DNA from: a virus
DNA length: 53,833 nucleotides
Virus record (IMG/VR): IMGVR_UViG_3300045988_061461
Direction: 5' to 3' (one strand)
The position numbers and the translations under genes were made by a program. The notes below the pieces were generated by a model. That model ran no database searches and was not told the DNA's origin. It was given only the letters and a program-made list of their open reading frames with translations. This document shows positions 5,659-53,833 of this stretch, piece by piece (positions within the stretch are counted from its first letter, which is position 1; every line of letters starts with the position of its first letter).

Positions 5659-6135
5659 TTAAAAGGGTGCTTCTCCGGGATATTCCATTTCAGCATACTT
5701 TGCTGCAAATTCGTCTTCTTCCATAACTACATACATCGTCTTGAGGTATGCGCTGATACCGGTTTTGCCATTAATCGTCCATTCATAAGGTGTAATGATA
5801 AGATCGCAAGACTGAATATCAACAACGTCGAGCTCACCAACTGTCTCTTCGTCGAGCATTCTCTTCTTTCTGGAAGTCATAAGATAGATCCTAGGAGGAA
5901 TGTTCTTGTAGGAAACTTTGACCTGAATATAAGGACGAGGCTCGTCGCCATCGTCTCTAGGGTTAAGCATACGAATGTTCCAACCGTCTTCCTTCAACTT
6001 AGGCGCGATTTCAGGATCAATAAAGACACAGAAGTTTCGATCACCAGCTCTGTTGAAAGCCGTCTGTTCTCCAGAAAAGTTCTTAAAGAAAAGGTGTGCG
6101 TTCTCAATGGCAATAGTTTTACGTTCGTTAGACAT
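5659..6135 (-). CDS. putative ssDNA-binding protein (gp2.5-like); start moved to MSNERK
   Basis: AAAGGAGAA lies 6 nt before the ATG at 6135. Sits immediately after the polymerase gene. Acidic C-terminal tail ending in F (AEMEYPGEAPF). Confidence 0.45.
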   Translation of the reverse strand: MSNERKTIAIENAHLFFKNFSGEQTAFNRAGDRNFCVFIDPEIAPKLKEDGWNIRMLNPRDDGDEPRPYIQVKVSYKNIPPRIYLMTSRKKRMLDEETVGELDVVDIQSCDLIITPYEWTINGKTGISAYLKTMYVVMEEDEFAAKYAEMEYPGEAPF

Positions 6136-6149
6136 TATTAGTTCTCCTT

Positions 6150-9100
6150 TCAATCATTTGCAAATAGTTCAAAATCTCCATAAGCGGAGATTGCATCAAC
6201 TGCTGCGTTCACCAATGCATCGTAATAAGATCTATCGATATCGTCCTCTTTATGGAGTTGTTTTACCATTTCAGATTCCAACCATCGATAACCTTTGGTT
6301 CCGACTACAGTGTCGTATTTAATGTTTCCGTTCTTGTCAAGGGCTTCGCGAACAAGATTTCCACCACCGCATCCTGGTTTCATCGGACAATAAAGACCGA
6401 CTTTACCAACGAATATCAAATGATGTTCGTCTGGTGTCTCTTCATTCATATCAAGATACATGTTAGTAGCTACCTGTTTTGTTTCGCACATATCTTCAAA
6501 TTCAATCTTTTCCTTTGAGAAAAGCTTTTTGAAGACATACGGAACAGCAAACTGAGTACCAGTAGCAGTCCATTCATTTGCATGCTTTCCGCCTTTGTTT
6601 ATGATGCCCTGTTCGTTATACTTTGCAATATATACTGCATTGTTAACAAGGCACATCTTAGCGTACGTAGCCTCATGTTCGAACTCGTACCCGTACATTC
6701 TTCCGAAATCTTTAACAAACTGAATGATTTCAGGAGTTGCATTTGGTATCTTTATAGAGTCCGTCTTTATGTGTGCTACTGTGAATCCGCGTTCCTGAAC
6801 TTCATGTTTCAGATTGATCATGAAGAGAGCGCCTCTCTTTGCTACAATATTATCAATGTTCCTCTTGTCCCTGAACGGATTGTCGAACTTTGCTGAAGTT
6901 AATCCATACACAGAGTTAATTGGCGTCTTTAGAACGTTAGATAAAATATCAGCAAGTTCTTCGGAAGTTAAAAATTTCGCGAGAGCGCCATTCATAATCT
7001 TTCTTGCCTGATCGAAGTCTTTGTGCTTAATCAATATTCGAGCTTGCTTCAATTCGGCAAAGCGTTTCGTATATTCATCGCCAAACAAGTTCTCTGCAAT
7101 TATCGAACTAGGATGCATAGATGCAATATCAAGTAATGCTACGTTCGTATAGATTCCAGGTTCGGCGTATACGTAACCACCTTCTCCAACTTCTTCTCCA
7201 CGATAAGTAGAAACTCCACGTTCAAACTTATATCCCGGAAATACGGGTTGCCCTTTACTATTAAAGACGACATATGAACCGGGTTTAATTGGAATATCAT
7301 CCTCTGCTAGGTTTCGATAATTGAATTGATCCTGAGGATGTTTGTTGTTCCCGAAAATGATCTTGGTTGTCAGACTATTGGTCGTATCATTAACCGTCAT
7401 TCCCGCGATGTCAGCAAGTATTTCTCTCGCCGTCCAATCCGCGTTCAAATAATGGAATGCTGCTTCCGTTGCGTCAACGTCGTTACAACAATATCCAGCA
7501 ACCAAAGGCCATTTATCTTCCGGAACAGGCTGATCCCAATCCATTCCAAGTTCCTGATGATGAATTCCCATCTTAATCTCAAGCTTCTTTAAGCTCATCT
7601 TATTTGATGCAGATGCGAAGTCATAAATATCAGTGTAACTTAGATTATAAGCTTCTCCGAACATGCCGGCGTTACGTTCTCCAGATATTATTTTCTTCGA
7701 GAGTTTATAGATCTGCTCGTTCGTATACCCCATCAATCTTGCATAGAGTATATGATTATCATAACGACGACAGTTAAAACCAACAAGTTTCAGTTGGAGA
7801 AGTTGCTCTATTTGAGCAGAATCGGGATTGTACAATATGGTTCTCTTATCTCCAGCACCATCAAATTTCCATACAACAAGGAGTAAGTTTGGAAATACCT
7901 CGACGTCATAAAACGCCAACCGATCAGATCCAAATTCTTTATTTTCACTTGGTGTATCCGACTTGAAATGCATCTTTGGCACAAGTTTCATACAATAATC
8001 GGACTGATTCGTACTGTTCGCTGCAAAGGCGAAGATTGCACTTCTCATGTCAGATACGTCATATTTCGACCCGTTATTATATGCTTTTTCAAGTGTAGAA
8101 TATATGAAGTCTATCGATGGTTTTGTTGCCGGATGATACTCTTTATTCAGATTTCTTTTGATTATGGTCCTAATAGCTCTCTCATTAAGAACGCTATCAT
8201 AATCGATCACCTTTTTATCTCCTTTCAGCGGTAATCCGGACGCAATTGTAGCAATAGGAATATCATTGCATTTTGTGAGCTTTCTTCTCAATGAGCTATT
8301 GCCCTTGAACACTTTGATCTCAATATTATCGTCATAGATTCTACTTAATTTTGAAGGATCGCCTTTGTAAATATAATGCAAGTGAATTCCAGCACCACTC
8401 TTGCTCAATTCAGCATAAGTTTTTGGCCATTTACTTGCTTCTTTAAGATTCTCTTCAAAGTTTTTCGAACCATCCTTCCCACGAATATCAAAGTCAATCA
8501 CAATATGATGAGTATTGTCTTCAAACTTTAGATAATGAAGTTTAGATGTATCGAGATCTTTAAGTTTTGTTCGGACATTTGCCCATTTGAAGTTTGGAGT
8601 TTCGTCTTCAGTTGCGTATTGCGCCATGCATTCTGCACATTCTTTGTCAAGAATCGAAGGCTGAACTTTAAAATCGATGAACTCTATTTTTTCAACAGAC
8701 TCATCTTTGTCTTCATTCAGACTTTTATCGAACTTATCAAATATAAATCCTTTGTAGTAATTTCGGATTCTTGTCCCATCTTCCAAGACATATCGCTCGA
8801 TATACTCTCTGAAATAGTTCTTCAATTCTTCCTTAAAGACACGCATTGAAGATGTATACCCAACTTTTGCTTCCTCACAATATACCTTATAACGCTCCCA
8901 TGCTGATTTCAACGAAGTTCCGTCGTCGTTCTTGAACACAAAGTAAGAATCTTCGACGAAATTATAGAAATCATTTGATGCGCCCATCATCGTTGTTGGT
9001 ACATAATCGTCATAATATCCAGGCGATTCTTCGTAAACCTTCAAACAATGATCTGCTATATGACCTAATTCGAATTTGATCTTCTCGGTCAACACATTAT

Positions 9101-10049
9101 ACTCTTTTCGACTTACTTTGTTTCCGGTTGGAGAAACATCAATAAGACGACGAATTAGACCAGACTTACCATCTGTAATACGAACAGGACGATTCGTTCC
9201 TAAGAACAAGAAACATTTAAATCTATTTGAATATGTAGATTTAAACTTTTCATTTACCGTCATATATTCGTGGGAGACCAAACTATTAAGTCTAGTGTTA
9301 TCCTCTATTCTAGACAAATCACCATCGTGTTGAATCGCAACCAATGGATTTGTTTTGAATGCTTCGAGAGCAAATGTGTTTGAAGAAGAACCCAATGCTT
9401 TTGCATCGAATACTGAATAATATCCTTCAAATAGTTGTTGAATAATGTTCAGAACTGTTGATTTACCAGTACCAGCTGCACCATACAAAACCATGAATTT
9501 CTGAATATTTCGAGAATCTCCTGAGACAATGGATCCAATTGCCCATTCAATTTTTCGTCTTTCTTCAGGCGCATAAAGCACATTCATTAATGTTTCGTAT
9601 CCGTCGATAGAGCCTTCTTCCAAAGGATACGGGAGTCGTTTGCTGGAATAATCTTTTTTATTCGTTGGACTATTTGAAAATATCAATTTTTCATCGAGCA
9701 TGTGGAACGAATCTCTCATGTCTTTTTGACAGAATCGATGCCATTTGTCTATCATTCGAGTTTCAGCATCCTGTACGTGAAGGACTTGAACATGTCCATC
9801 TAGTCGAGATTCATTCTCTTTAGCATACTTGTCCAGTTCTTGATCGATTAGTTCAATAGCATCTTGTTCGTCGGTGGACCATAACCCTTTATCTTCGATC
9901 CAGATCGCGTAGAAATCACCACCTCGAATCATTAGATCGGAGCTTTTCATAATGTAGAATTTTGGATAGATTTCGATTGTTCCTTTTGACTTTCCAGGCC
10001 TCGTCGAAATTCTCAAAAAATCAAGCATCAGGTCACGTTCCTTTACCAA
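6150..10049 (-). CDS. single-polypeptide replisome: P-loop (SF3/D5-like) NTPase + AEP primase + 3'-5' exonuclease + family B DNA polymerase (1299 aa)
   Basis: Walker A YGAAGTGKST. AEP motifs VIDFDI and SGAGIHLHY. Exo I FYDVEVF, Exo II RRYDNHIL, Exo III YCCNDVD. Pol A DIASMHPS, Pol B KTPINSVYG, Pol C IKTDS. The track start is TTG; the ATG at 10028 is an alternative. Confidence 0.85.
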   Translation of the reverse strand: MVKERDLMLDFLRISTRPGKSKGTIEIYPKFYIMKSSDLMIRGGDFYAIWIEDKGLWSTDEQDAIELIDQELDKYAKENESRLDGHVQVLHVQDAETRMIDKWHRFCQKDMRDSFHMLDEKLIFSNSPTNKKDYSSKRLPYPLEEGSIDGYETLMNVLYAPEERRKIEWAIGSIVSGDSRNIQKFMVLYGAAGTGKSTVLNIIQQLFEGYYSVFDAKALGSSSNTFALEAFKTNPLVAIQHDGDLSRIEDNTRLNSLVSHEYMTVNEKFKSTYSNRFKCFLFLGTNRPVRITDGKSGLIRRLIDVSPTGNKVSRKEYNVLTEKIKFELGHIADHCLKVYEESPGYYDDYVPTTMMGASNDFYNFVEDSYFVFKNDDGTSLKSAWERYKVYCEEAKVGYTSSMRVFKEELKNYFREYIERYVLEDGTRIRNYYKGFIFDKFDKSLNEDKDESVEKIEFIDFKVQPSILDKECAECMAQYATEDETPNFKWANVRTKLKDLDTSKLHYLKFEDNTHHIVIDFDIRGKDGSKNFEENLKEASKWPKTYAELSKSGAGIHLHYIYKGDPSKLSRIYDDNIEIKVFKGNSSLRRKLTKCNDIPIATIASGLPLKGDKKVIDYDSVLNERAIRTIIKRNLNKEYHPATKPSIDFIYSTLEKAYNNGSKYDVSDMRSAIFAFAANSTNQSDYCMKLVPKMHFKSDTPSENKEFGSDRLAFYDVEVFPNLLLVVWKFDGAGDKRTILYNPDSAQIEQLLQLKLVGFNCRRYDNHILYARLMGYTNEQIYKLSKKIISGERNAGMFGEAYNLSYTDIYDFASASNKMSLKKLEIKMGIHHQELGMDWDQPVPEDKWPLVAGYCCNDVDATEAAFHYLNADWTAREILADIAGMTVNDTTNSLTTKIIFGNNKHPQDQFNYRNLAEDDIPIKPGSYVVFNSKGQPVFPGYKFERGVSTYRGEEVGEGGYVYAEPGIYTNVALLDIASMHPSSIIAENLFGDEYTKRFAELKQARILIKHKDFDQARKIMNGALAKFLTSEELADILSNVLKTPINSVYGLTSAKFDNPFRDKRNIDNIVAKRGALFMINLKHEVQERGFTVAHIKTDSIKIPNATPEIIQFVKDFGRMYGYEFEHEATYAKMCLVNNAVYIAKYNEQGIINKGGKHANEWTATGTQFAVPYVFKKLFSKEKIEFEDMCETKQVATNMYLDMNEETPDEHHLIFVGKVGLYCPMKPGCGGGNLVREALDKNGNIKYDTVVGTKGYRWLESEMVKQLHKEDDIDRSYYDALVNAAVDAISAYGDFELFAND

Positions 10050-20346: not shown

Positions 20347-21276
20347 TTATACACCCTCATACAAAATACGATTTTCGATATAGAATTGTAGATTCGTCAG
20401 ACCTTCGTCAGCTACAAATGTAAAGACGTTATCACCTTTTTCCAATTGGAACCAGTCTGCATCCTTATTCAACGCGTTAAGAATATTGGTATAAACACCA
20501 TCTCGAATAATATATGCTGACTTGGATCCTTTTACTGTCGTGATGATTATATCGTCTCCGGTAATGATTCCGCTACTATTCGTAATAGTAGCAATCTTAT
20601 TTGTATCGATTGTCATCTTCTGACGAAGCTCTGTATTGTGAATAGTTATGTTCTTTGCCGGTCCAAGAGCATGAATTCGTATGTATACACCGGTCATAGC
20701 GTCGCCAGTATACCATACTGTATTCTCACTCATGTTTTGGATCTCTCCAAGAACAATTTTCTTTTCAGTCAACGATTCATTGGAAAATGGGAATGTAAAA
20801 GAATGCTTTATTCCGTAGAAATCAGTTTTCTGCAAACTTCTATCTTTCCCAGCTTCATAGAAATATGGATCTGGACAGATTATAGAAATCTGAGCACTTT
20901 CTTCTTGACTAAATATCTCTGGTTCGTTCGATTCGACATAACCCGTCGTCTCTAGCCATCGATTGTCGGTTTTGACTATAATCGCGACTTCTCGTTTAAT
21001 AGCAAAGAATTTATAAGATTTCTGACGAATATCTTCAATCATCTCTCCAGTCTCAGTCGAAACAAATCCTATTGTAAAAACAATATTTCTGCTTTCGAGT
21101 CGAGAAGAATTGAAGAAAGATCCATCATACGTTGCAACTTCCGTCGAGTTAATAGTTGCTTTTGCAGGGCCCAGTCCTGTGACATCTTTGATGAGGAAGC
21201 CAGAGACTTCCGGCCTCCTCAAATCAACGTCTATACTGTCCCCTCGGAAGTTAGTGAAAGTAAATCCATTTATCAT
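20347..21276 (-). CDS. distal tail protein (Dit)
   Basis: Overlaps the tape-measure stop. About 300 aa with a phage-tail-family N-terminus. Confidence 0.65.
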   Translation of the reverse strand: MINGFTFTNFRGDSIDVDLRRPEVSGFLIKDVTGLGPAKATINSTEVATYDGSFFNSSRLESRNIVFTIGFVSTETGEMIEDIRQKSYKFFAIKREVAIIVKTDNRWLETTGYVESNEPEIFSQEESAQISIICPDPYFYEAGKDRSLQKTDFYGIKHSFTFPFSNESLTEKKIVLGEIQNMSENTVWYTGDAMTGVYIRIHALGPAKNITIHNTELRQKMTIDTNKIATITNSSGIITGDDIIITTVKGSKSAYIIRDGVYTNILNALNKDADWFQLEKGDNVFTFVADEGLTNLQFYIENRILYEGV

Positions 21277-24200
21277 ACCATGGTAGCTCCTTTCAATGCA
21301 GAGAATTGGTTCTTGGTCTGACGATAGATTTCTATGCGACTAAGAGCCTTGGGGGAGTAATTATTTTGTACAAAATTGTAAGATGGACCGCTCTTTGTAG
21401 ATCCATTTTGATTTTCCGTTTCGACTGCCGTTTGCCTCTTTGTCCGAATAGCATCAACAGCTAATGCTCTATTTCTAGAGAACATCGAATCAAGCGTTGT
21501 GACCCCATTTTGCACATCCGACAAATCAAGAACTGGACGAATAACCGGATGATCAGACACTTTTCCCTCAATGGTATCTCGAACTGTCGACAAAGCATCG
21601 TCAAGGCCTTGAGTTGCTTTTCGACCCATATTCCAAGACTCGTCATAAACTTCTCCAGATTTATTTCGAAGTGTATTTACGAGACCCGCAATGATATATC
21701 GAGCGGTTTCTATAGTGGCTTTAGAAGGAGAGTTTACTTGAGCACCCTGTGCACAAGCTGATACAGCTGCTTCACCAACTGCTTTAGCAGTATTTTTGAC
21801 AGTTTCGATTTTATCGTTAATACCTTTGACGAGACCATCACAGATATTTGTACCAATTCCCTTAGCTGCGTCGAAAATAGATTGACCGCCTTCTGATATA
21901 GCAGTTCCGGTTTTGCTAAGAAAATCTCCAACACCGGACGACATTGAGGAGAATACGGAACCGTTTTCGGAGAACGTATCAGTGATAGCGCCGCTTATAA
22001 GATTGTTCAGTTTTTCTTTGATATCAGTACCAGCCGAGGTTAAATCCACAGCTGACTCTGCCCCAGAGGTTGCTTCTTCTCCGCCGAGAGTCAAAAGAGA
22101 TTCTCCAAGCTCTTTAATCTTTGAAGAAAATTGCGTTATATTAGTGTAGTCGAAACCGGTCAGACTGTCTGAGAAGGATTGGATTGTCTTGCCCAACGAA
22201 GTTAATTTTCCTTCGATCGGAGTAATATCAATGTCCATACCCTCTTTGAAACCGGCAAACGCTATTCCTATATTAGCGAGAGCATTCGCTATCGTAGAAG
22301 CTTTGCTGACTTGTGATCCATCGATTTCAGATATTGCAACAGCAAATATTCCGAACTGTCGTCCAATCTGGCCTAAACCGGTAAGACCGTTTTCACCGAA
22401 GATCTTTTGCCAGGTCCCTCCAGTTTTAGGCAAGGATTTTGCCGAACTTGCAATACCGGCGATTACATCTCCAATAATCTTAGCAACACTTACTGGATCT
22501 CTTCCTGTAAGAGCGTCGTCATAAGCATCACACATTGCACCAAGATTACGGATAACATCATCTAGATCATCGGTATAATCGCCAAGGGTTTGAGTCTCTC
22601 CAATAAAGTCAGTTATACTACCACCAGTTCGCCCAATCTGTCCAGAACCAGATGTTATAGAACTAATAACATCTCCGATAGCAGCAGCAACTGTCTTGGC
22701 CTTTGTTCCCTTATCTTTAAGAAAACCGAGTTCGTCAGCCGTTTGGACCATATATTGGATGTTACGGACAGCATCACTTAGATTATCGGTGAATTTCGCA
22801 AGATCGGTTTCACCCATAATATCTTGCAGCCATCCGCCGCTAGCAGTAATATTGCTCGTGAATTGAGATAGATCTAATCCAAATAAACCTTTCTTATCGT
22901 CTCCGTTACCAGCTATCCCTTCGGTTATAAGTTTAATAATATCAACAATGCCTTGAGCGGCCGTGAGACCAGAGGCAATATTGGTAAAGTTACTACCCAG
23001 TGACCCCATATCTTTTGCAATATCCGGAAGTTTGGAACAGAGATCTTTAAGATCATCAAGGTTCTTTACATTTTTGGATTCTTTAGCAGCAGATACAATT
23101 CCAGCAATCGCAGTTGAAAGATTCGCAACTTTCTCAAGATTACCAGCAGATATAATACCAACCGAATCAGCAAAAGCCTTCAGAGAAGACATAAAATCTT
23201 CAGAAGAAAGATCCTTAAGCATGTTCTGAAGATTGATCATGTTATTCTTGTTCGGAGGATCTTTCAAGCCATCAGAAAGACCTCTGATTGCCGCGGCAAA
23301 GTTGGTAATATTGGATTTCATATTCGGATCCATCTTACTGCAAGCTTCGCCAAACGAAGCCATTTGTTCAAGAAGACCGCCAGTCTTCGTAATATCAGCA
23401 AGAACTTCAGTTACTTTGTCGGTTCCTCTTCCAGTGAAGAATTCGACTACCATTCCAGCCCAGCCTTCACCAGCAGCAACTTTAAGTCCTGCTATTCCAA
23501 CAATCGCTTGAAGAACAGCAACAATATTATCCGCTCCGATAGGTTGAATCTGAGCAGCAATATCCATGGCATCCTTAATGTTCTGTGCAACATTTTTGAA
23601 TCCAGCGGTAAAGCTGACTACAGTTTGAATCATAGCGGAACCAATCGCGTCCGCTATCCCGACCAGGACGATCTTTAAGCCATCCATGAAAGCTTTCATA
23701 TTAGCAAGATCTTCTTCGGTCATGCTCATAAGTCCGGAGACCCAACGAATCAATAGGGTTAAGCCCACTAACGCAATAACCAAAACGGTAAATATCCCAA
23801 CGCCAGCAAGACCAGCGATTCCGAACGTTCCAGCAACACCCAAGAGTATACAGGCAGCAGAGAGAGCCAGAACCATAGTAGAGATCGCAACTGCTGCTGT
23901 TATAGCACCTTCTACTTGTCCAGTGCTGGAAAGAAGAAGACCAAGCATCGTACCCAAACCAATGGCAAGGGCTCCAAGAATCGATACTGATAGTATAGCT
24001 TCTGGAGCAATCTTCCCAGCAAATTGTAGTAGCAAACAAGCTCCTGTTATAGCACCAAGAAGAATGGATACACCAACAACCAACGGAAGAACAGATTTGG
24101 GATCGGTCATACCGCTGAATTTTCCAACAACAGCAGTAAGACCTGCCGCAATAACGGCAAGCAGTCCAACCGTTATGGATATTTTCTTAATATTTTTGTT

Positions 24201-27200
24201 TCCGAAGGTTGTTTTTGAAAGCAATATCACACAGGCTGAAATTGCACCAAGAAGAATGGATACCGATAGAGCAAGTGTTATAGCGCCACCCGGATTTTCA
24301 ATGTTTCCGAATGCAGCTATCATCCCGCCCATTATGAATGCGACAGTTGTTAATATCATAACGCTGTCAATAATTTTATCCAACGACTTATTCGCAAAAG
24401 TCGACTTAGATAGGACAACAGCACATTGGCTTATTACGTATAACAACAGAGAAACAGATTCAGCAAGGATTATTGCTCCAATAGGATTCTGAATATCATT
24501 GAAGATACTAACAAGGACACCCATTGCAAACGCAATAGCTGTGAATGCGGCCATGGTGGTGTAAAGTTTACCCATCATTTTCCAGGATCTGCTGAATTTA
24601 GCTTTAGATACGATAGCGAGAACTTGAGATAATGCTAGGATTAAAATTCCAACACTCCCGGCGAGCGAAATCGCACCTTTTACATCATCAATCTCCCCGA
24701 ACATCTTTATCATGGCACCAAAACCCCATATGACGCCAGTTAAAAGAGCAATGGTTAGCATGACAGATCCGCTAATCTTTTCCATACTACTGATCGTTCT
24801 AAGAAGTATAGCCAAAACCAAACTTATTGCTGCAAGTCCTCCGAGACCAATTAGTGCTGACTTCCAGTCTAACAAAGATATCAAAGAAACGGCGGCGAAC
24901 ATCATGGTTATCATAGTTCCAATAAGAACTATCTTTGCGGCCCCGCCTTTATTAACACCGGCAACCCCTCGAAGCATTATACCAAACGCGATAATGAACG
25001 CTGCTACTGTGGCGGCCCCTTTCACCAGACGATCTGTATCCATTCCTCCTAAAATATAAATAGCAGGTATCAGAATGTATAGAGAAAGGGCAAGACTCAT
25101 AATTGCAAGACCTGCTCGTCCAGCATATTGTCCAGAGAATTTACTGAGAGCCATAAAAACAGAAAAAGCAAGAGCTACTAATCCAGCATTTGCAGCGCCT
25201 TTTTTGAAAACCTCTTTCGGAATATTAGCAAATTTCTTGATGGCTACATACGCTATATATAACGATGCGGCTAACGAAACAATCGCTAAACCACCTTTTG
25301 CTGCGTTCTTAGATCCGCCTATCGATAGGGATAACATAACGATACCAAGAGCTATAGCTAAACCTTGAAATAGACGTACCTTTTCTTTAGAGCCCTCTAA
25401 CGCAGAAGAATCAATTTTCTTGAAAACATCAACTAATTTCTGCATAACATATGCTATTCCAAGAAGAGTGGCGACAGCTCCTAATTTAACCCCTTTAGAA
25501 GCTCTCATGGCGAGCGCCATTGCGGCAATTAGACCGCCAATCATAACAATGGCTTTGATGTTTCCTTTTACATCAAATCCTTGAAGGTCTTTTAAGGTAT
25601 CCACTATCATCTTCAAGGAGAGTGCAATTCCAATGGCAGACATAAATCCACCAATACCAGTACCCTTGCTTGCTCTGGCCATGATTGTAGCAGCCGTGGT
25701 AAGTGCAACCATTAAAGCGGCAAACATGAGTATTTCGGGCCCCATACTAGCAAAATCCATATCTTGGATTTTCTTAAGCGCCACAACCGTCATTAAAATT
25801 GCAGCACCCATTGCGGCCATTGAATAACCAACGTTTTTAAAATCGGCAGCCTTAGAAAATACAGATATTAAAATTGTAAAAACACTAACCGCAGCCCCTA
25901 TCGCGCCTAAGACTAAAACAGATTCCCATAACCTATCAGCAGGTATGTTTGCCAATATCGCAAGGGATGCAGATAGCATTAGGATACCCGTGGCAATACT
26001 TTTAAAAGTATCTCCTGGACTATCCTTTGAAATTTGTATAAGCGTATCGGCTACTAATTTCGGAAGATCCGCTATAGTTTTAGCCAACGAAGTTATAACT
26101 TTTGCCGGACCATCGAGAATGGTTAAAAATTTATCGACAAGTTTTCCGATCCCACGAAAAATAGAAATTATTACAATCAAACCAGCAAAGACTGCAATAG
26201 AAGTCCAATTAATTTCTTTTATTTTCTCGCCAATCCAAGCAATTGCGTTGCCAGCAAGAGTCTTCAGTTTTTCAAAACCACTAGATGCACTTTCGACGCT
26301 CGTATTGATGGATTTTCCAATCCCATTCCAAGAATTAACGATCCAATCCTTTACTGCGCTGACTTTTTCTCCGATTTTGTAGAAGATTTCTCCAAATCCT
26401 TCAAAGGAAATATTAATTGCACCGAAAGAATCAATAACTTCTTTACCAACGGCCTTTACAGATTTAAAGAAATTTGTAAACGAGGAGAAGTCTATTTTTT
26501 TAAAACTAAGTTTCGATAAAGCGGAGGAAATTCCGTCGAATATTGGCTTAACGCCCTTCAAATTCTTAAATTTCTCCCAGTAACTGTTAAGAACGACAAT
26601 GCCATTTTGAATTTCCGTTTTCACTGAAACTAGAAATTCTCGAATTGCTTCTCCGCCGCGAAGCTGTGCTCTTAAATTAGTTATTCCTTGACCTACATTC
26701 GAAAGGAAATCGAAGATACTTTGAGGAATTCCGTCAAAAGCATCCCCAATAAGATCGTCCTTAATAAACTTAAAGATTCCTGTAGCGAAATCTTTTACAA
26801 TTCCTAGAATGCTAAATGCACCCGTGAAAATGTTAGAAAATTTTTCTTGATTAACGTCGAGATTAATGAAATCGGTCATTGACTTCGTTAGATTTCGAAC
26901 GCTTTCCAAGGCATTCTTTAATTGTTTCGCCGTTATAGGCGGAAACACATTTTTGAAACCTTTCTTGACAGCATTTAGTATCCCTAGAATAGAATCAAAC
27001 GTATTGTAGAAACCTTCAACTAAGAATTTACGTCCGCTACCTGTTATTTCGCTAATTATACTTAGAATCTCGGTGTCTCCAGATTCTACTTTTTTTACAA
27101 AATCATCCCATATAGGATTTCTACGTTTATTCTTAAAGGCTTTTTTCATATAATCATCATACGCCAAAACAGCTTGTTTGATGATTTTTTCGTCTGCCCA

Positions 27201-28532
27201 ACCACTAGTTAAACTTTTAGCAAGACTTCCGGCATCCTTGATCATCTGATCCGTTAGAACTCCGTTAGCCTTTCCTACTTGTTCAAGAGTCTTTTCAAAC
27301 TGATTTACATCGCCCCCAGTATCTGTTATGACTCTTCGAAGACGTTCCCAGTTCGTCACAGCAAAAGACTCTTCTAAAAATTCATTTCTCGCTTCTGCAG
27401 GCCCAGCAAAAATATCATAAAGATAATTTGCCATGTCGGTCCATAGAACTTTCTGCTGTTCATAATTACCGAGAATCTTCTCAAAACTATTCATCCAGCC
27501 AGTAGCAACTGCATCTTTTACAGAATCAATTACATCGTTAAAAGTCTTGGCTTCCTGCGCTGATCGAAAAGCTTTTAGTCCAAATGCATCGACGCTATTT
27601 CCGAGTTCTTCAATCGCCTGCGATGCGGTAATACCGTGTTCTTCCGTATATTCATAAATCTGATTGACAGCTTCAGAATATCTTTTGAAGGCTTTCATCA
27701 TTACTTCAGAAGTAGCCCAAGCATCGTCTGTTAAATGATTGGGAAGCTGACTTGTGCTGAATTCTTTAGAAGAAGCAGTTAATGATTTATATGCGTCATC
27801 TCCAATTTTTTCAAGAGTTCCTAATTCAACACCGGCTTCTATAAGATTTTTTCGAAACTCTAATGTATCCATGTTAGCATTCTGGATAGACATATAGTCT
27901 TGCTTTCGAAGCTGTCCAGAACCCATGGCCTGAGAAATTTGATACATAGCACGACTGGCTGTTTGAGCATTCTGACCAGACAAGGCTGCCCAGTTGGCAA
28001 TACCCATCATTGCTTCGACAGAATCTTCTAGACTTTGACCAGATGCTGTGAACATACCAATGTTCTTTACCATATCCGTAAAGTTATAGCTGGTTTCATC
28101 AGTAAACCAATTCAGTCTCTCTAACTGTTTGGTTACTTCATCCATGTTATAGCCTTGGGATATCAATGTTGCAACTGCAGTGGTCTTCTCAGCATACTTA
28201 TCCCAGCCAGCTGCAATATTGTCGACGCTAAGAGATTTTATCAAATTCTTTCCGGTTGTGATTGCTTGGTCACTAATTCTCTTAAGAGCCGTATAACCAG
28301 CTATCTGTAAAGCACTAAATTTTACCGTGACTTGCTGAACAGCCTGACCTAAAATACCCGGATTAACTTTTTCAATCTCTCGGTTTAACTGACGCATGCT
28401 CTTCGAAGCATCATCCATTTTAAAAGCATGTTTAAGTTTATCAAGAGTCGACATGCTAGTTTTGACATTTTTCTCAAAATTACTATTGTCAAATTGCATT
28501 TCAACAATTCTTGAATCGACGGTCTTACTCAT
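21273..28532 (-). CDS. tail tape measure protein, 2419 aa, with a roughly 700-aa polytopic hydrophobic core
   Basis: Position after the chaperones. Coiled/Ala-Gly-rich arms. At least 5 tandem repeats of about 64 aa in the hydrophobic core. Confidence 0.85.
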   Translation of the reverse strand: MSKTVDSRIVEMQFDNSNFEKNVKTSMSTLDKLKHAFKMDDASKSMRQLNREIEKVNPGILGQAVQQVTVKFSALQIAGYTALKRISDQAITTGKNLIKSLSVDNIAAGWDKYAEKTTAVATLISQGYNMDEVTKQLERLNWFTDETSYNFTDMVKNIGMFTASGQSLEDSVEAMMGIANWAALSGQNAQTASRAMYQISQAMGSGQLRKQDYMSIQNANMDTLEFRKNLIEAGVELGTLEKIGDDAYKSLTASSKEFSTSQLPNHLTDDAWATSEVMMKAFKRYSEAVNQIYEYTEEHGITASQAIEELGNSVDAFGLKAFRSAQEAKTFNDVIDSVKDAVATGWMNSFEKILGNYEQQKVLWTDMANYLYDIFAGPAEARNEFLEESFAVTNWERLRRVITDTGGDVNQFEKTLEQVGKANGVLTDQMIKDAGSLAKSLTSGWADEKIIKQAVLAYDDYMKKAFKNKRRNPIWDDFVKKVESGDTEILSIISEITGSGRKFLVEGFYNTFDSILGILNAVKKGFKNVFPPITAKQLKNALESVRNLTKSMTDFINLDVNQEKFSNIFTGAFSILGIVKDFATGIFKFIKDDLIGDAFDGIPQSIFDFLSNVGQGITNLRAQLRGGEAIREFLVSVKTEIQNGIVVLNSYWEKFKNLKGVKPIFDGISSALSKLSFKKIDFSSFTNFFKSVKAVGKEVIDSFGAINISFEGFGEIFYKIGEKVSAVKDWIVNSWNGIGKSINTSVESASSGFEKLKTLAGNAIAWIGEKIKEINWTSIAVFAGLIVIISIFRGIGKLVDKFLTILDGPAKVITSLAKTIADLPKLVADTLIQISKDSPGDTFKSIATGILMLSASLAILANIPADRLWESVLVLGAIGAAVSVFTILISVFSKAADFKNVGYSMAAMGAAILMTVVALKKIQDMDFASMGPEILMFAALMVALTTAATIMARASKGTGIGGFMSAIGIALSLKMIVDTLKDLQGFDVKGNIKAIVMIGGLIAAMALAMRASKGVKLGAVATLLGIAYVMQKLVDVFKKIDSSALEGSKEKVRLFQGLAIALGIVMLSLSIGGSKNAAKGGLAIVSLAASLYIAYVAIKKFANIPKEVFKKGAANAGLVALAFSVFMALSKFSGQYAGRAGLAIMSLALSLYILIPAIYILGGMDTDRLVKGAATVAAFIIAFGIMLRGVAGVNKGGAAKIVLIGTMITMMFAAVSLISLLDWKSALIGLGGLAAISLVLAILLRTISSMEKISGSVMLTIALLTGVIWGFGAMIKMFGEIDDVKGAISLAGSVGILILALSQVLAIVSKAKFSRSWKMMGKLYTTMAAFTAIAFAMGVLVSIFNDIQNPIGAIILAESVSLLLYVISQCAVVLSKSTFANKSLDKIIDSVMILTTVAFIMGGMIAAFGNIENPGGAITLALSVSILLGAISACVILLSKTTFGNKNIKKISITVGLLAVIAAGLTAVVGKFSGMTDPKSVLPLVVGVSILLGAITGACLLLQFAGKIAPEAILSVSILGALAIGLGTMLGLLLSSTGQVEGAITAAVAISTMVLALSAACILLGVAGTFGIAGLAGVGIFTVLVIALVGLTLLIRWVSGLMSMTEEDLANMKAFMDGLKIVLVGIADAIGSAMIQTVVSFTAGFKNVAQNIKDAMDIAAQIQPIGADNIVAVLQAIVGIAGLKVAAGEGWAGMVVEFFTGRGTDKVTEVLADITKTGGLLEQMASFGEACSKMDPNMKSNITNFAAAIRGLSDGLKDPPNKNNMINLQNMLKDLSSEDFMSSLKAFADSVGIISAGNLEKVANLSTAIAGIVSAAKESKNVKNLDDLKDLCSKLPDIAKDMGSLGSNFTNIASGLTAAQGIVDIIKLITEGIAGNGDDKKGLFGLDLSQFTSNITASGGWLQDIMGETDLAKFTDNLSDAVRNIQYMVQTADELGFLKDKGTKAKTVAAAIGDVISSITSGSGQIGRTGGSITDFIGETQTLGDYTDDLDDVIRNLGAMCDAYDDALTGRDPVSVAKIIGDVIAGIASSAKSLPKTGGTWQKIFGENGLTGLGQIGRQFGIFAVAISEIDGSQVSKASTIANALANIGIAFAGFKEGMDIDITPIEGKLTSLGKTIQSFSDSLTGFDYTNITQFSSKIKELGESLLTLGGEEATSGAESAVDLTSAGTDIKEKLNNLISGAITDTFSENGSVFSSMSSGVGDFLSKTGTAISEGGQSIFDAAKGIGTNICDGLVKGINDKIETVKNTAKAVGEAAVSACAQGAQVNSPSKATIETARYIIAGLVNTLRNKSGEVYDESWNMGRKATQGLDDALSTVRDTIEGKVSDHPVIRPVLDLSDVQNGVTTLDSMFSRNRALAVDAIRTKRQTAVETENQNGSTKSGPSYNFVQNNYSPKALSRIEIYRQTKNQFSALKGATMV

Positions 28533-32220: not shown

Positions 32221-33915
32221 TTATGCCTGAGCCATTTCAATGGCAATGGCACTGTAAGGCTTATTCAGAGAACCAGAGCAACGAGTCTCGATCAGATACT
32301 TCTGCTGGTTGTAATCGATATCGAAATCGTCGAACATGTTCACTTCGCCACCCTTATCGGCGCCAAAGGTATAGTCTTTCATGTTGACGATAATAGCAAC
32401 CAGAGTACCACCAAGCTTACCAGTGAGATTCTCCATCACGGGAACAGTTACGATACGAGATACACGCAGTTTCCGAGCCAGCTTCTCTTCGGATTCATAG
32501 AGGTCACGACCAGTAGTATCCGTCATGAGCAGCATGTTAGTCAGCATGTCTTCAGTAGTGAACATGATGGGGCTGCCGGAACCCTTATAGTCCTTACGAG
32601 CCTTAATCGCGGCACGAATGACCAGCTTAGCCTTATCATCGTCAGTAGCATTAGCGCTATAAGTAACCTTGGTCTTGATAGTGTACAGATCCTCATCGTT
32701 GTAGATAGGACGAATGCACTGAGTGTTAATATGATCGTCATCAGAGGTGCTACGACCATCGCCAACCAGAGCCGCACGAGCAATTTCTTCGTCCAGCATC
32801 ATGCGCATCTCGGTCTTCAACATTGCGGCAACATTGAAATCGGTAATATCAAGCATGTCGTCCCGATCCATCTTCTGCTTCTTATAGATGCTCGTAGGAC
32901 TGGTCGTACGCTTCAAAAGAGTGAAGACTTCTTCCTTCTTCATGTTGCCCTTAATATAACCCTTAGCGCGAGCTTCATCTTCGGTAATGTTTGCATAGAT
33001 GGACTTAATGCGGGAGAACGCAGTGTGAGTAGCACCATTCATGACAACGCTCACCCAGTCCATATTCCGAGAAATAAAATCAATGTTGTTAGAAGTGGTG
33101 CGAGCATCGGGGAAGAGATATTCCACGTTCTCGATACCATGAGCCAGAGAGCTCTCCTTCAGGGAGCCATACTTCTTGATGTCGTTAAAAACGGCCACAA
33201 CATCACTATGCTGGATCACATCTTCCTGCTGCTGTTCATTGTTATTGTCAAATACATTGTGCTTCACTACGGTTCCCCCCTCGTCATTTTTAGATTCATT
33301 TTGATTTTTTCCTTCTTCGAGCGCTTTTTTAACAAGAGCCCAGAGAACTTTCTGCTGCTCCTCGGTCATATCATCAATAACATCCCCAACAGTACGCTCT
33401 TTCTTTTCTTCAGACATATCGGCCTTTTCCTCCATACTTTCTTTTTTATCTGCATGCTCAAGTTCTATCTCGATCGGCATACCAGTATAAATTTGTCCTT
33501 CAAATTCAGCATCATCAGCATGGGCCATAACATCATCGATGTAGGCTCCAGGATTAGCTCCAGCAAGGACCAGACTAACTTCTCTAATATTACCGTGAAT
33601 AACATTAGATCCGTTCTGACGAAGCTGATTGGCCCAAATAGACAAATATTCAACATCGCCATGTTTTACAAGAGACTTCGCGGTCTGACCATTCTCAGTA
33701 TCGTTAAATTTGCCATAAATACGAACACCTTCGCCCATATTTTTGAGAATGCCATGACCAAGAACATCGTTTACAGAATTATGCTGATGGTTCCATACGA
33801 TGGGAACTACAGCACCATCGTTTTCCTTGAAAGCATCATGCATAATGACTCGACCATCGCTACACTTAAGATTTGCTCGTGTAGCCCAGCCGGCGAAATC
33901 ATATTCCTTAGCCAT
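32221..33915 (-). CDS. fused HK97-type prohead protease, acidic scaffold-like linker and HK97-fold major capsid protein
   Basis: N-terminus FAGWA..VPIVWNHQH..EVSLVLAGANPGA (S78-like protease). Linker EKADMSEEKKER...EEQQK. C-terminal roughly 330 aa is capsid-like. Confidence 0.75.
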   Translation of the reverse strand: MAKEYDFAGWATRANLKCSDGRVIMHDAFKENDGAVVPIVWNHQHNSVNDVLGHGILKNMGEGVRIYGKFNDTENGQTAKSLVKHGDVEYLSIWANQLRQNGSNVIHGNIREVSLVLAGANPGAYIDDVMAHADDAEFEGQIYTGMPIEIELEHADKKESMEEKADMSEEKKERTVGDVIDDMTEEQQKVLWALVKKALEEGKNQNESKNDEGGTVVKHNVFDNNNEQQQEDVIQHSDVVAVFNDIKKYGSLKESSLAHGIENVEYLFPDARTTSNNIDFISRNMDWVSVVMNGATHTAFSRIKSIYANITEDEARAKGYIKGNMKKEEVFTLLKRTTSPTSIYKKQKMDRDDMLDITDFNVAAMLKTEMRMMLDEEIARAALVGDGRSTSDDDHINTQCIRPIYNDEDLYTIKTKVTYSANATDDDKAKLVIRAAIKARKDYKGSGSPIMFTTEDMLTNMLLMTDTTGRDLYESEEKLARKLRVSRIVTVPVMENLTGKLGGTLVAIIVNMKDYTFGADKGGEVNMFDDFDIDYNQQKYLIETRCSGSLNKPYSAIAIEMAQA

Positions 33916-35185: not shown

Positions 35186-36115
35186 TTAGTTCCATTCGAC
35201 CTCGTAGAGCCAATCTTTAAGTATTTTTGCATAATCGTCTGTTCCCGGAAGACCTTCAGATTTCGCAACTAATCTAAAGAATTCTGATTTTTCGCTTTCA
35301 GATAGATCATGAAAGCCTTTTCCTTGTGTTCGATTCATAAAATTTTTCCATATACTCTTTCCAAACTGTCCGCTTCTTGGATCATAGCCACCTTCATTTT
35401 GAAAAAAGTAATAATAATGATATACCTTACCCAAGGTATCGACGATTTGTCGTGTCTTTGGGTCGGCGTTATCCCAATATCTATTCTGTCCCTCCTTTTC
35501 AAGACTATAGTAAATTTTGTCTCTCATCGCTTGCGTGTCAGGATCATATTTTCCATGATCTTCCTTTTCGTATTCTTTCATAAATTCATCAACTATTGCT
35601 CGCTGATTTGCTTTACTATAGAAATTGATTAATTCTTTTGCTGTTTTTTTAAAACTGGGAATCGAATCTTTAAAGATCTGAAGTTTTTCTGGATCATATA
35701 TCGAATCATTGTACCATTCTAAAGCTTTGTAATCATTCAACATTTTGCGCGTTTCCAAATCGTCCGGAAGTTGGAGTTTGGAAAGTATTATTTTATCAGC
35801 TTCTTTTGCATACTTGTCGTAGATCTTCATCGATTTTTCGAGTTTTACAATATCGCTACCGCTTCCGTCTATAATTTCATATGCATTGTTTCTTTTCAAT
35901 TCCTCTTTTCTTTTCTTTCGAAGACGATCAAGATCTTTTCCAGCAGCTTTTTTAACGTCAGAATAAAAAGTGCTTCGATCACGTTTGTATTTATCTTGAG
36001 TACCATACCCATAATGTATACGTCCAGCAGGAGTTAAAGACCCGTCTTCATTCTGCCATCGACGTACATGCCACTTTTGACCTCTAACTCCATAATGATA
36101 AAGTTCATTCGTCAT
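35186..36115 (-). CDS. protein with an N-terminal MTNELYHYG..DGSLTPAGR motif (paralogous N-terminus with 37886..38587)
   Basis: The track ORF starts at GTG 36127; the ATG at 36115 gives MTNELYHYGVRGQKWHVRRWQNEDGSLTPAGRIHYG. Confidence 0.6.
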   Translation of the reverse strand: MTNELYHYGVRGQKWHVRRWQNEDGSLTPAGRIHYGYGTQDKYKRDRSTFYSDVKKAAGKDLDRLRKKRKEELKRNNAYEIIDGSGSDIVKLEKSMKIYDKYAKEADKIILSKLQLPDDLETRKMLNDYKALEWYNDSIYDPEKLQIFKDSIPSFKKTAKELINFYSKANQRAIVDEFMKEYEKEDHGKYDPDTQAMRDKIYYSLEKEGQNRYWDNADPKTRQIVDTLGKVYHYYYFFQNEGGYDPRSGQFGKSIWKNFMNRTQGKGFHDLSESEKSEFFRLVAKSEGLPGTDDYAKILKDWLYEVEWN

Positions 36116-36127
36116 GTCATCACCCAC

Positions 36128-37885: not shown

Positions 37886-38587
37886 TTATTTCTTCTTTTT
37901 CTTTTTAGCAACAACTGTGGGACCATTTGAAACTTTTGTCTCAGGTTGTTTCTTTTCTTTAGAGCTCATATATTCAGGGATATTCGCTTGAATCCATCGA
38001 TTTTTAGCGATCTCTGTCTTAATACGTTCTTCTTCAGATTGGTTCTTCAAACGATCCATTTTAGAAAATGCTTTTTGCAATTTTTCAGAAACTTTATTAG
38101 CCCCATCAGTAGCAGCTTTCTTTTGTTGTTCAGTCTTGAGACCCAGTTTAGTCTTAGCATAATCCATAGTTTTGTCGACAAGTAGTTCGCCAAGTTTCTG
38201 AGCACCGTAAGTTCCAAGTTTATTGATTAACTCATTTCGACTCTTTTCGAAAAATTTTCTAGTTGCGCTTTTGTCTTCTTGAGATAACTTTGAAATAGCC
38301 TCTTTGTACTGTGTCTCAAGTCGATAACGATTCAAAAAATCGTTAATTTCTTGATCACTCATTTCGCTAACAGGTTTATAAGTTTTTTTCTCTTCTTTTG
38401 AATTTCGAGACGTTGACGTCTTCTTAGAAGTTTTCTTTCTAAAAATTCCCCATCTACTTTTATCTCTAGCTGGTCCTACTCCATACCGTTCTCGACCAGC
38501 AGGAGTTAGAGATCCGTCTAAATTCTGAAAACGTCTGATACCGTGCTTCTGTCCATCTATACCATGATGGTAAAGTTCGTTAGTCAT
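37886..38587 (-). CDS. basic protein with an N-terminal MTNELYHHG..DGSLTPAGR motif
   Basis: AAAGGAGGAAA lies before the ATG at 38587. C-terminal poly-Lys. Confidence 0.6.
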   Translation of the reverse strand: MTNELYHHGIDGQKHGIRRFQNLDGSLTPAGRERYGVGPARDKSRWGIFRKKTSKKTSTSRNSKEEKKTYKPVSEMSDQEINDFLNRYRLETQYKEAISKLSQEDKSATRKFFEKSRNELINKLGTYGAQKLGELLVDKTMDYAKTKLGLKTEQQKKAATDGANKVSEKLQKAFSKMDRLKNQSEEERIKTEIAKNRWIQANIPEYMSSKEKKQPETKVSNGPTVVAKKKKKK

Positions 38588-38660
38588 TTTGAATTTTCCT
38601 CCTTTCCTCTCGGAGTATTTATTCAATGGACTTCGCGCTCTTTTCTAATTATTCTAAAAC

Positions 38661-44190: not shown

Positions 44191-44529
44191 TTAATCAACA
44201 AGCTTTGACAATTCTTTCTCAACTACGATCTCTTCATTCGGGTTCAAAGGAAGAGAAGTTTCATCGTCAAGATCTTTAGTAACCTTCAAATAAATGTTTT
44301 GAAAGTCATACTTAATAATTTCGTCAATTGCTTCTTCAATTGCTTCTTGGTATTCAATGTCAGTAAATGAATTTGAAGTCTTCACTATTCGACCTAGAAA
44401 GGCAGAAGAATGGTAACCTTTTAATTCATCATACATATACCAGTGATAGAAATCCTCAAAAGGATCATAAGGATTATCCTTCGTAGTAATCATCGATTGA
44501 CGCATCAATTTCACTCTCCTTTCTTTCAT
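44191..44529 (-). CDS. hypothetical protein (start probably ATG 44505, MRQSMITT...)
   Basis: AAAGGAGAG lies before the ATG at 44505. Overlaps the 3' end of the RNAP gene. Confidence 0.55.
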   Translation of the reverse strand: MKERRVKLMRQSMITTKDNPYDPFEDFYHWYMYDELKGYHSSAFLGRIVKTSNSFTDIEYQEAIEEAIDEIIKYDFQNIYLKVTKDLDDETSLPLNPNEEIVVEKELSKLVD

Positions 44530-53683: not shown

Positions 53684-53833
53684 AATTTCAAATTTTGGAT
53701 CAATGATTCCATCTTTTGCTTCTACTACATAATAGTATAATACTTCGCCATTATTAACTAAAACCAATTTGCGTTTTATGATTCTTCCACCACATTCTGC
53801 TAATTTGGTTTCAAAATAACTAGCTACATCTTT
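53672..53833 (-). CDS. 3' part of the junction-spanning 62-aa hypothetical protein
   Basis: Full product MMKYYAYVAKDVASYFETKLAECGGRIIKRKLVLVNNGEVLYYYVVEAKDGIIDPKFEIEGA when the circle is closed. Confidence 0.5.
   Translation of the reverse strand, partial: KDVASYFETKLAECGGRIIKRKLVLVNNGEVLYYYVVEAKDGIIDPKFEIEGA
53779..53833. repeat. terminal 55-nt exact direct repeat (copy 2)
   Basis: Identical to 1-55. Confidence 0.9.

Follow-up and report, generated by a model that had tools for sequence, protein, structure and literature searches.

An uncultured phage very probably encodes a GP55-type four-in-one replicase with KTDS as motif C of its family B DNA polymerase

The fusion of a helicase, a primase and a polymerase into a single phage protein was first pointed out by Kazlauskas et al. 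(NAR 2016, PMC4889955), and helicase, RNA primase, polymerase and exonuclease activities were later demonstrated by Zhang et al. (NAR 2025, PMC12205980) for one such protein, GP55 of the Lactococcus phage 1706. In the latter study, the K189A substitution abolished unwinding, D509A abolished priming, for which Y655 and F667 were also essential, D712A/E714A abolished the exonuclease activity and D949A was polymerase-dead. The helicase module was shown to use UTP or dTTP and to mediate dimerisation, and the N-terminal region was included in the ‘helicase domain’ (deletion 1-439). Apart from GP55, the authors name GP66 alone as a replication protein of phage 1706. An SF3 helicase (DUF5906/D5-type) and a primase are also joined in one chain in P4 gp-alpha, poxvirus D5, NrS-1 and pRN1 ORF904, and the standalone family B polymerases (PolBs) known as ‘PolIIphages’ have NTDG as their published signature (Kazlauskas and Venclovas, NAR 2011, PMC3201878). 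In this study, which was based on a viral sequence of 53,833 nucleotides (IMG/VR record IMGVR_UViG_3300045988_061461, hereafter the window), we found an open reading frame that very probably encodes a GP55-type ‘four-in-one’ phage replicase, i.e., an SF3 helicase, an archaeo-eukaryotic primase (AEP) with its alpha-helix accessory domain (aHD), an exonuclease and a PolB. The replicase is thus not new but an additional member of a known and biochemically tested family.

The preliminary description of this DNA had reported one uninterrupted reading frame, which agrees with the ORF listing: the mechanical ORF lies on the minus strand at 6150..10049, extends to a TTG at 10049 and encodes 1299 aa. 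All of the motifs quoted there were recovered from its translation, from YGAAGTGKST (aa 189-198) through VIDFDI (517-522), SGAGIHLHY (551-559), FYDVEVF (713-719), RRYDNHIL (761-768), YCCNDVD (853-859), DIASMHPS (974-981) and KTPINSVYG (1041-1049) to HIKTDS (1093-1098), in the 1299-aa numbering. The true start, however, is most likely the ATG at 10028 (M8), because an AAGGA ribosome-binding site precedes it by 10 nt, the database proteins that are 97-99% identical to the replicase all have 1292 aa, and other family members begin at an M-x-D-F that is equivalent to M8. The predicted replicase CDS would therefore span 6150..10028 (minus strand, stop codon 6150-6152) and encode 1292 aa. Positions 1-1286 of the 1304 in the PHROG 4210 profile cover aa 9-1298 with E = 0, and because of this near-complete match the identity of the ORF is far from a chance assignment.

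A BLASTP comparison with GP55 showed 39% identity between aa 13-1292 of the replicase and residues 10-1298 of GP55 (860 bits). Both proteins have the same collinear architecture, in which the N-terminal region and the SF3 helicase are followed by a PriS-like AEP, the aHD, the exonuclease and the PolB. Moreover, the residues whose mutation inactivates GP55 are all conserved (K189 as K196, D509 as D521, Y655 as Y663, F667 as F675, D712/E714 as D715/E717 and D949 as D974). The two proteins differ in an insertion of approximately 50 residues near the C-terminus of GP55, which is absent here, and in one of approximately 19 residues before the palm, which is found here. A search of cultured-phage records returned 327 matches to the replicase; in 252 of them the homologue spans 80% or more of its length, and most of these carry the annotation DNA primase/polymerase. 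Hence the fusion, which had been called uncommon, is indeed of an unusual architectural type, but the rarity that this implied was overstated as the family is abundant. The host probably differs from that of phage 1706, the nearest cultured relative being a Faecalibacterium phage, FP_oengus, whose helicase/polymerase (AUV56521.1) is a full-length homologue with 59.5% identity and the same motifs. Full-length homologues with 44-52% identity and the motifs in common are also found in Arthrobacter, Gordonia, Streptomyces and Microbacterium phages as ‘DNA primase/polymerase’. The phage of the window belongs to the same phage supercluster as FP_oengus and these Actinobacteria phages, which has a YonO-like RNA polymerase gene (preprint 10.1101/842583). 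A megablast search of positions 1-25000 of the window against cultured phages gave no match and the relatedness is seen at the protein level only; the window represents an uncultured lineage with less than 60% protein identity to cultured phages.

The N-terminal domain (aa 8-165; 9555..10028, minus strand) has the conserved residues D10, F11, P29, W50 and W57, and a Pfam search with it gave no match. It is followed by the SF3 helicase core and its C-terminal helical region (aa 166-450; 8700..9554, minus strand), which were delimited using DUF5906, PHROG and motif conservation. The NTPase module that had been noted from its P-loop can now be named as a D5/P4-type SF3 helicase: Pfam DUF5906 matched aa 188-300 with 50.6 bits (cutoff 27.6; 3.5e-13), and aa 127-447 were aligned by PHROG primase-helicase families on the C-terminal halves of primase-helicases. 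The SF3 motifs comprise the Walker A residues G190..G195-K196-S197, the Walker B D242, the sensor 1 N286 and the arginine finger R300/R301; K196, D242, N286 and R300/R301 are invariant or near-invariant in the family alignment, with a lysine at K196 of the Walker A P-loop YGAAGTGKST (9456..9485, minus strand) in 127 of 127 aligned representatives. By analogy with GP55 and its conserved residues, this module would unwind DNA and drive strand displacement. The nucleotides preferred by the helicase and the sequence recognised by the primase may not be those of GP55.

The AEP (PriS-like) catalytic domain (aa ~455-620; 8190..8687, minus strand) was delimited using its invariant motifs, an AF2 model and Foldseek. 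Its motifs are D519-F-D521, S551-G-x-G-x-H556, E577-x-K579 and R588-R589, with D519/D521, H556 and E577 invariant in the family alignments. A model that was built from a 54-sequence alignment of divergent representatives reached a pLDDT of 94.2 (an earlier AlphaFold model from 15 close homologues, with a pLDDT of 53, was discarded). In a Foldseek search of the PDB, its top seven matches were the NrS-1 and pRN1 primase-polymerases (E 4e-5 to 8e-4, probability at least 0.99), and these were the sole significant neighbours, the next match being at E = 0.49. The closest structural relatives of the AEP domain are NrS-1 N300 and the pRN1 primase. Together, the invariant DxD, sGxGxH and E-x-K motifs and the model bear out the AEP-like primase module that was proposed from the sequence. 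Pfam gave sub-threshold matches only on this segment (Prim-Pol, which was seen in seven of ten members, and AEP-TOTE), and a PDB profile search with the AEP and aHD alignment found no significant primase, NrS-1 (7rr3/7rr4) appearing at E = 1.6. Because these sequence-only searches stayed below threshold, the AEP assignment rests on the structural evidence and the biochemistry of GP55. The top match in that profile search, the four-helix Lactococcin-A immunity protein (E = 0.016, on the aHD segment), was regarded as helical-repeat noise. The aHD itself (aa ~621-700; 7950..8189, minus strand) comprises four helices in the predicted model (aa ~623-634, 642-658, 666-677 and 683-692). Among 150 representatives, Y663 is Y or F in 145 and F675 is F in 137. 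If the module acts as in GP55, the AEP (D519/D521, H556) and the aHD (Y663, F675) would make short RNA primers de novo on a single-stranded template. With the helicase at aa ~166-450 and the AEP after it, the domain order is reversed relative to P4/D5, as had been observed before, and relative to NrS-1 and pRN1 as well; in addition to this, a proofreading PolB is fused downstream, and the helix-bundle/PriL-type accessory domain of these proteins is absent, the unrelated four-helix aHD being found instead.

The 3'-5' proofreading exonuclease subdomain (aa ~705-900; 7350..7937, minus strand) was recognised by its invariant residues, i.e., D715/E717 in Exo I, Y763-D764-N765-H766 in Exo II and Y853..D857 in Exo III, and by analogy with GP55 it is expected to proofread through D715/E717. 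The palm, fingers and thumb of the PolB module follow (aa ~935-1299; 6153..7247, minus strand), as determined using a PDB profile search and PHROG 1252 (‘DNA polymerase’, 6.6e-48). Pfam DNA_pol_B (PF00136) scored 14.1 bits, which is under the gathering cutoff of 23, and a single-sequence search of the PDB gave only marginal PolB matches (E = 0.017), so that a profile was required. With the family profile, Sulfolobus PolB1 (1e-12), Pol alpha (6e-12), Thermococcus PolB (8e-12) and E. coli Pol II (2e-11) were matched. Since solved PolBs are matched at E = 1e-12, we classify the module from its sequence profile as a divergent but true PolB despite the sub-cutoff Pfam score, and because of that score the assignment rests on the profile evidence together with the biochemistry of GP55. 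The residues D715, E717, D764, D857, D974, K1041, N1045 and D1097 are conserved wherever they could be aligned (147-150 of the 150 representatives) with the exception of one E717S, which agrees with the exonuclease and PolB modules that were claimed earlier. By analogy with GP55, the PolB would extend the RNA primers with dNTPs using D974 of motif A and D1097 of motif C. No phi29-type chain was found among the best 60 of the 94 PDB profile matches, and the RNA primase encoded in cis argues against protein priming.

Three canonical PolB signatures, namely DTDS/DTDG with both aspartates, the tyrosine of DxxSLYPS and KxY, are not found in this module. In motif C (H1093-I-K1095-T-D1097-S; 6756..6773, minus strand), the first Asp of DTDS is replaced by Lys and the catalytic second Asp is kept. 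The preliminary description had correctly read the motif as HIKTDS, although the coordinates that it gave, 6756-6767, cover KTDS only. The replacement itself stands: KTDS aligns to the DTDS/DTDG of solved PolBs, and the Lys codon is AAG at 6765-6767. In motif A (D974-I-A-S-M-H979-P-S-S; 7104..7130, minus strand), which aligns with the DxxSLYPS of solved PolBs, the catalytic Asp is kept (150 of 150) and the steric-gate Tyr is replaced by His (149 of 150). The strand equivalent to KxY (N-N-A1138-V-Y1140; 6630..6644, minus strand) aligns to the KKNY/KKKY of solved PolBs and has no Lys, the position being Ala in 124 representatives, Ser in 23 and Thr in three. Motif B (K1041-x3-N1045-S-x-Y1048-G; 6903..6929, minus strand, from the family alignment) has K1041 and N1045 in all 150 and Y1048 in 149. 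These residue counts were obtained from a MAFFT alignment of 150 mutually divergent representatives, one for each 50%-identity cluster. At the first position of motif C, Lys was found in 146 and Ser in four, with Asp in none, while D1097 and H1093 were present in 150/150. Moreover, K-T-D-S was found in 120/120 close homologues. The suggestion that KTDS marks a clade was thus confirmed by the motif counts. GP55 has HVKTDS as its motif C and the same motif A His (SLHPHS there, SMHPSS here); KTDS is therefore compatible with efficient polymerisation and, by analogy, can be considered the regular motif C of the GP55-type subfamily and fit for catalysis. The metal ligands that are required would be only the motif A Asp and the second Asp of DTD.

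It could be argued that the departure from the textbook motif, or even the long fused ORF, arose from errors in sequencing or assembly. Nothing but that departure speaks for it, and we consider it to have practically no probability: AAG is two substitutions away from an Asp codon (GAY), proteins with 97-99% identity are encoded on contigs of 54-57 kb from several ENA and Logan assemblies that are independent of one another, KTDS and the motif C Lys are conserved in the close and divergent homologues counted above, KTDS is found in isolated and sequenced phages of at least five host genera, and the architecture is collinear in 252 phage records. Sequencing error and assembly chimerism were ruled out by this conservation across independent assemblies and phages. 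The three non-canonical positions and the sub-cutoff Pfam DNA_pol_B score could also be taken to signify a degenerate pseudo-polymerase in a protein whose role is limited to that of a helicase-primase or primase-polymerase while another polymerase carries out elongation. This is very improbable, as the identical three substitutions are present in GP55, which extends primers at an enzyme concentration of 1.25 nM and copies 7.2 kb ssM13 in 0.2 min, a synthesis that is lost in its motif A mutant D949A (PMC12205980). Additionally, strong purifying selection has kept the metal-ligand Asp pair, motif B and the Exo residues unchanged, and no second DNA polymerase was found among the window ORFs that were screened.

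A functional GP55-type polymerase might still work with a chemistry unlike that of other PolBs, and comparison with the NTDG clade bears on this question. That clade (e.g., Enterococcus Efquatrovirus, Staphylococcus phiST9-C, Nonagvirus JenP1 and crAss-like cr272_1) has a homologous Exo and Pol module that is 16-25% identical where Pol or Exo+Pol could be aligned, and it likewise lacks the first motif C Asp and the KxY Lys. However, its members are standalone proteins of approximately 580-760 aa with NTDG or NTDA (NTD[G/A] in 11/11 of those sampled), the steric-gate Tyr kept, and DVNNY rather than VNxAVY. By this signature, the GP55-type lineage would be a sister or derived group relative to the NTDG subgroup and not a member of it, and the first motif C position had probably already changed to Asn in the parental NTDG clade of phage PolBs, with Lys arising in the fusion lineage. 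Three linked active-site differences thus separate the fusion subclade from the standalone relatives: Lys for Asn in motif C, His for the steric-gate Tyr in motif A, and AVY in place of NNY at the KxY position. They seem to have been undiscussed so far; a literature search for a ‘KTDS’ DNA polymerase or the first DTDS Asp brought up no paper that concerns the GP55-type family, and the GP55 paper, in its text and supplements, mentions neither KTDS or DTDS nor the steric gate, rNTP discrimination or Mn2+ (PMC12205980). Their co-occurrence, their near-invariance across representatives from separate 50%-identity clusters and this silence leave some room for the idea that the trio co-evolved with the cis-fused RNA primase and altered the polymerase chemistry or substrate handling. 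We regard both the altered chemistry and this co-evolution as unlikely, if conceivable. In its published assays GP55 looks like any faithful DNA polymerase that depends on Mg2+, and restriction enzymes cut the DNA that it makes (PMC12205980). Ser is tolerated for Lys in four representatives, in which motifs A, B and KxY show no obvious change that would compensate for it. If the idea were true, Lys1095 could possibly contact the primer terminus (the role of the KxY Lys) or an incoming phosphate, and metal usage could be changed, sugar selectivity relaxed or altered, or the takeover of cis-made RNA primers made easier.

That one polypeptide can combine helicase, primase, polymerase and proofreading functions was already established, and this locus adds breadth rather than a new principle. 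For annotation, the ORF and thousands of unnamed metagenomic relatives, in which Pfam at present recognises only DUF5906, can be named confidently as GP55-type helicase-primase-polymerase replicases. Of small enzymological interest is that this very large PolB lineage, whose activity has been demonstrated, does without the first motif C Asp and the KxY Lys and has a steric-gate His, so that nature itself offers a test of which ‘universal’ PolB residues are indispensable. The genome is that of a complete phage in which an SSB-like and an SF2 helicase gene adjoin the replicase. The single polypeptide and the adjacent SSB-like protein would probably supply most of the replisome of this siphovirus-like phage of ~53.8 kb. 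The SSB-like gene lies immediately downstream (5659..6153, minus strand; phrog_4787, E 1.3e-64); by analogy with phage 1706, which also has an SSB-like gene close to its replicase gene, its product is a probable partner of the replicase, and it shares its PHROG annotation with gp66.

The replicase of this phage, which joins an SF3 helicase, an AEP primase, a four-helix accessory domain (aHD), an exonuclease (Exo) and a family B polymerase (PolB), adds a new, uncultured member to a family that has already been published and characterised biochemically. Its novelty is low, as it is 39% identical to GP55, the four-in-one replicase of Lactococcus phage 1706 (aa 13-1292 against 10-1298 of GP55, 860 bits), and less than 60% identical to the protein of any cultured phage. 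The ORF runs uninterrupted on the minus strand (6150..10049) and encodes 1299 aa from a TTG, to which our residue numbers refer; every motif quoted in the preliminary description was found in its translation, where it had been placed. Translation probably begins at the ATG at 10028, which would give a protein of 1292 aa, because this codon is preceded by AAGGA, the database proteins that are 97-99% identical to the replicase are all 1292 aa long and the equivalent M-x-D-F is the start of other family members. The ORF is real and non-random. PHROG 4210 ('DNA polymerase', profile length 1304) covers aa 9-1298 with E = 0, and matches were found using tblastn in 327 of the 50,697 phage records, with at least 80% of the protein covered in 252. 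These phages, whose proteins are mostly annotated as 'DNA primase/polymerase', infect Arthrobacter, Gordonia, Streptomyces, Microbacterium, Curtobacterium and Lactococcus or are human oral and gut siphoviruses, and the top match was Faecalibacterium phage FP_oengus (59.5% identity). Moreover, independent ENA and Logan assemblies yielded near-identical proteins, and the ORF is therefore not an assembly chimera.

Kazlauskas et al. (NAR 2016, PMC4889955) were the first to note this fusion. The activities of this family are known from the study by Zhang et al. (NAR 2025, PMC12205980), who purified GP55 (1317 aa) and found it to be a dimer that rapidly replicates ssM13 de novo. The authors showed that its DNA polymerase activity was abolished by D949A and its 3'-5' exonuclease by D712A/E714A, that the helicase and strand displacement activities depended on UTP/dTTP and were lost in K189A, and that the RNA primase, which prefers GTP and acts at 5'-CCAAC-3', was lost in D509A. 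A new alpha-helix domain, in which Y655 and F667 are essential, was also needed for priming. The same work counted more than 1000 homologues, chiefly in human-associated phages, and tabulated FP_oengus. All of the residues mutated in GP55 are kept in the replicase (K196, D521, Y663, F675, D715/E717 and D974). Given this biochemistry and these residues, the four-domain interpretation of the preliminary description was right, and our domain searches agreed with it; the four-in-one reading is, however, already textbook for the family.

Profile searches of the individual domains placed Pfam DUF5906 (the D5/P4-type SF3 P-loop) at aa 188-300 with 50.6 bits, above the cutoff of 27.6, and the C-terminal helicase halves of PHROG 'DNA primase' families aligned with aa 127-447. 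Walker A K196, Walker B D242, sensor 1 N286 and R300/R301 are kept in the helicase. For the AEP segment, sequence comparison by itself pointed only weakly to a primase: PHROG matches had E = 8e-5 and 8e-4, Pfam Prim-Pol was matched below threshold by 7 of 10 members of the replicase family and NrS-1 was matched in the sequence-only PDB search at E = 1.6. The assignment was carried by nearly invariant motifs (D519-x-D521, S/G551-G-x-G-x-H556, E577-x-K579 and R588-R589) and by an AlphaFold2 model of aa 455-705, which was based on an alignment of 54 divergent relatives and had a pLDDT of 94.2. The only significant PDB neighbours of this model were the AEP primase-polymerases of phage NrS-1 (6jop, 7rr3, 6a9w, 7rr4, 6jon and 6k9a) and plasmid pRN1 (9aam), all at a probability of at least 0.99 and with E between 4e-5 and 8e-4; the next PDB match had E = 0.49. 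Four helices (aa ~623-692) that correspond to the aHD close the model. For the family profile of the aHD segment (aa 612-681, nt ~8007-8216), the only PDB sequences that matched, and these marginally (E = 0.016-0.04), were those of Lactococcin-A immunity protein (5lfi and 8hfs), which also has four helices; the aHD was reported as having no known homologue, and the likeness is probably helical-bundle noise. In the Exo domain, D715 and E717 (Exo I), Y763-D764-N-H (Exo II) and Y853..D857 (Exo III) are invariant, as are D974 (motif A), K1041/N1045/Y1048 (motif B) and D1097 (motif C) in the polymerase. The Exo-Pol profile matched the solved PolBs of Sulfolobus (PolB1, 1e-12), Pol alpha (6e-12), Thermococcus (8e-12) and E. 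coli Pol II (2e-11).

By analogy with GP55 and from the conserved residues, the helicase module would unwind the DNA, the AEP and aHD would lay down RNA primers and the PolB would extend them and proofread, with D974 and D1097 as the likely metal ligands in catalysis. The single-stranded DNA may be coated by an SSB-like protein (phrog_4787), whose gene lies directly downstream (5659-6153, minus strand).

The residual interest of the replicase lies only in the functional meaning of its Lys/His/Ala signature. The preliminary description had claimed one fused ORF with KTDS in place of DTDS, and this is borne out: the four codons lie at 6756-6767 and the full HIKTDS at 6756-6773 (minus strand), and the Lys codon is AAG. 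In the alignment with solved PolBs, the first Asp of DTDS/DTDG corresponds to K1095, the steric-gate Tyr of SLYPS to H979 and the KxY Lys to A1138. When the Exo-Pol module was used as the query of an exhaustive HMMER search, 1483 clusters (50% identity) were found at E up to 1e-3 and 384 at E up to 1e-30. Among the best 150 of the 1483, of which 128 have at least 1200 aa and are full fusions, the first position of motif C is K in 146, S in four and D in none; H1093, T1096 and D1097 show (almost) no variation, His occupies the steric gate in 149 and every one of the 150 has A, S or T where KxY has its Lys. In the four natural S variants, motifs A, B and KxY show no evident compensating change, an argument against a strict requirement for the Lys. 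GP55 shares both KTDS and the motif A His (HVKTDS and SLHPHS), and the Lys can thus occur in a polymerase that is fast, faithful and Mg2+-dependent. In contrast, N-T-D-[G/A], a motif A Tyr and DVNNY at KxY were found in 11/11 sampled standalone Exo-Pol relatives, which occur in more than 1000 phage records; those sampled were phages of Staphylococcus (2), Enterococcus, Weissella, Escherichia (PDP46 and JenP1), Vibrio, Klebsiella, Rheinheimera and Pseudomonas (JG054) and the crAss-like cr272_1. NTDG was published in 2011 as the hallmark of the 'PolIIphages' subgroup (PMC3201878). The standalone parent clade had therefore already lost the first Asp, and N was replaced by K in the fusion lineage. 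In the text and supplements of the GP55 paper (PMC12205980), there is no mention of KTDS or DTDS, of Mn2+, of rNTP discrimination or of a steric gate. Searching the literature for KTDS also gave nothing relevant; the co-occurrence of K/H/A-V-Y as opposed to N/Y/N-N-Y appears to be undiscussed in the searchable literature.

The window is probably a complete phage genome of ~53.8 kb, since its ends (1-55 and 53779-53833) carry an exact 55-bp direct repeat, of the kind that assembler overlap typically leaves when a genome is circular or circularly permuted. The minus strand carries all identified genes, the GC skew is negative throughout and no tRNA genes were found in the window. Besides terminase, portal, Dit-like and minor tail proteins and an SF2 helicase, it encodes a 953-aa homologue of the YonO/crAss-like single-subunit RNA polymerase (44474-47335, minus strand), which matches phrog_4291 (labelled 'RNA-dependent RNA polymerase') end to end with E = 0 and also has an N-terminal HTH match. 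This polymerase was proposed as a signature of an Actinobacteria-Firmicutes phage supercluster (preprint 10.1101/842583). The very long tape measure protein (21273-28532, minus strand, 2419 aa) is covered by phrog_4372 only over its first ~1040 residues; its C-terminal ~270 residues match other tape measure families, and for the ~1100 aa in between nothing matched at an E-value limit of 1e-5. A 564-aa ORF (32221-33915, minus strand), apparently a protease-capsid fusion, matches phrog_3270 (head maturation protease) over its full length (4e-213); its C-terminal half resembles a major head protein family. Two ORFs that flank the large terminase gene (35186-36127 and 37886-38626, both minus strand) are similar to phrog_32444 (annotated 'unknown function') over the first ~40-60 residues of that family and may be paralogous N-terminal modules. 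The C-terminal half of a 230-aa ORF (49052-49744, minus strand) matches the PHROG 'tetrahydrofolate dehydrogenase and cyclohydrolase' (3.8e-23), and this ORF may act in nucleotide or folate metabolism; ThyX is present in the early region of FP_oengus. Positions 1-25000 had no nucleotide-level match to the 50,697 deposited phage genomes using megablast. Near-identical contigs are frequent in metagenome assemblies, with one 90%-identity cluster comprising 185 member sequences.
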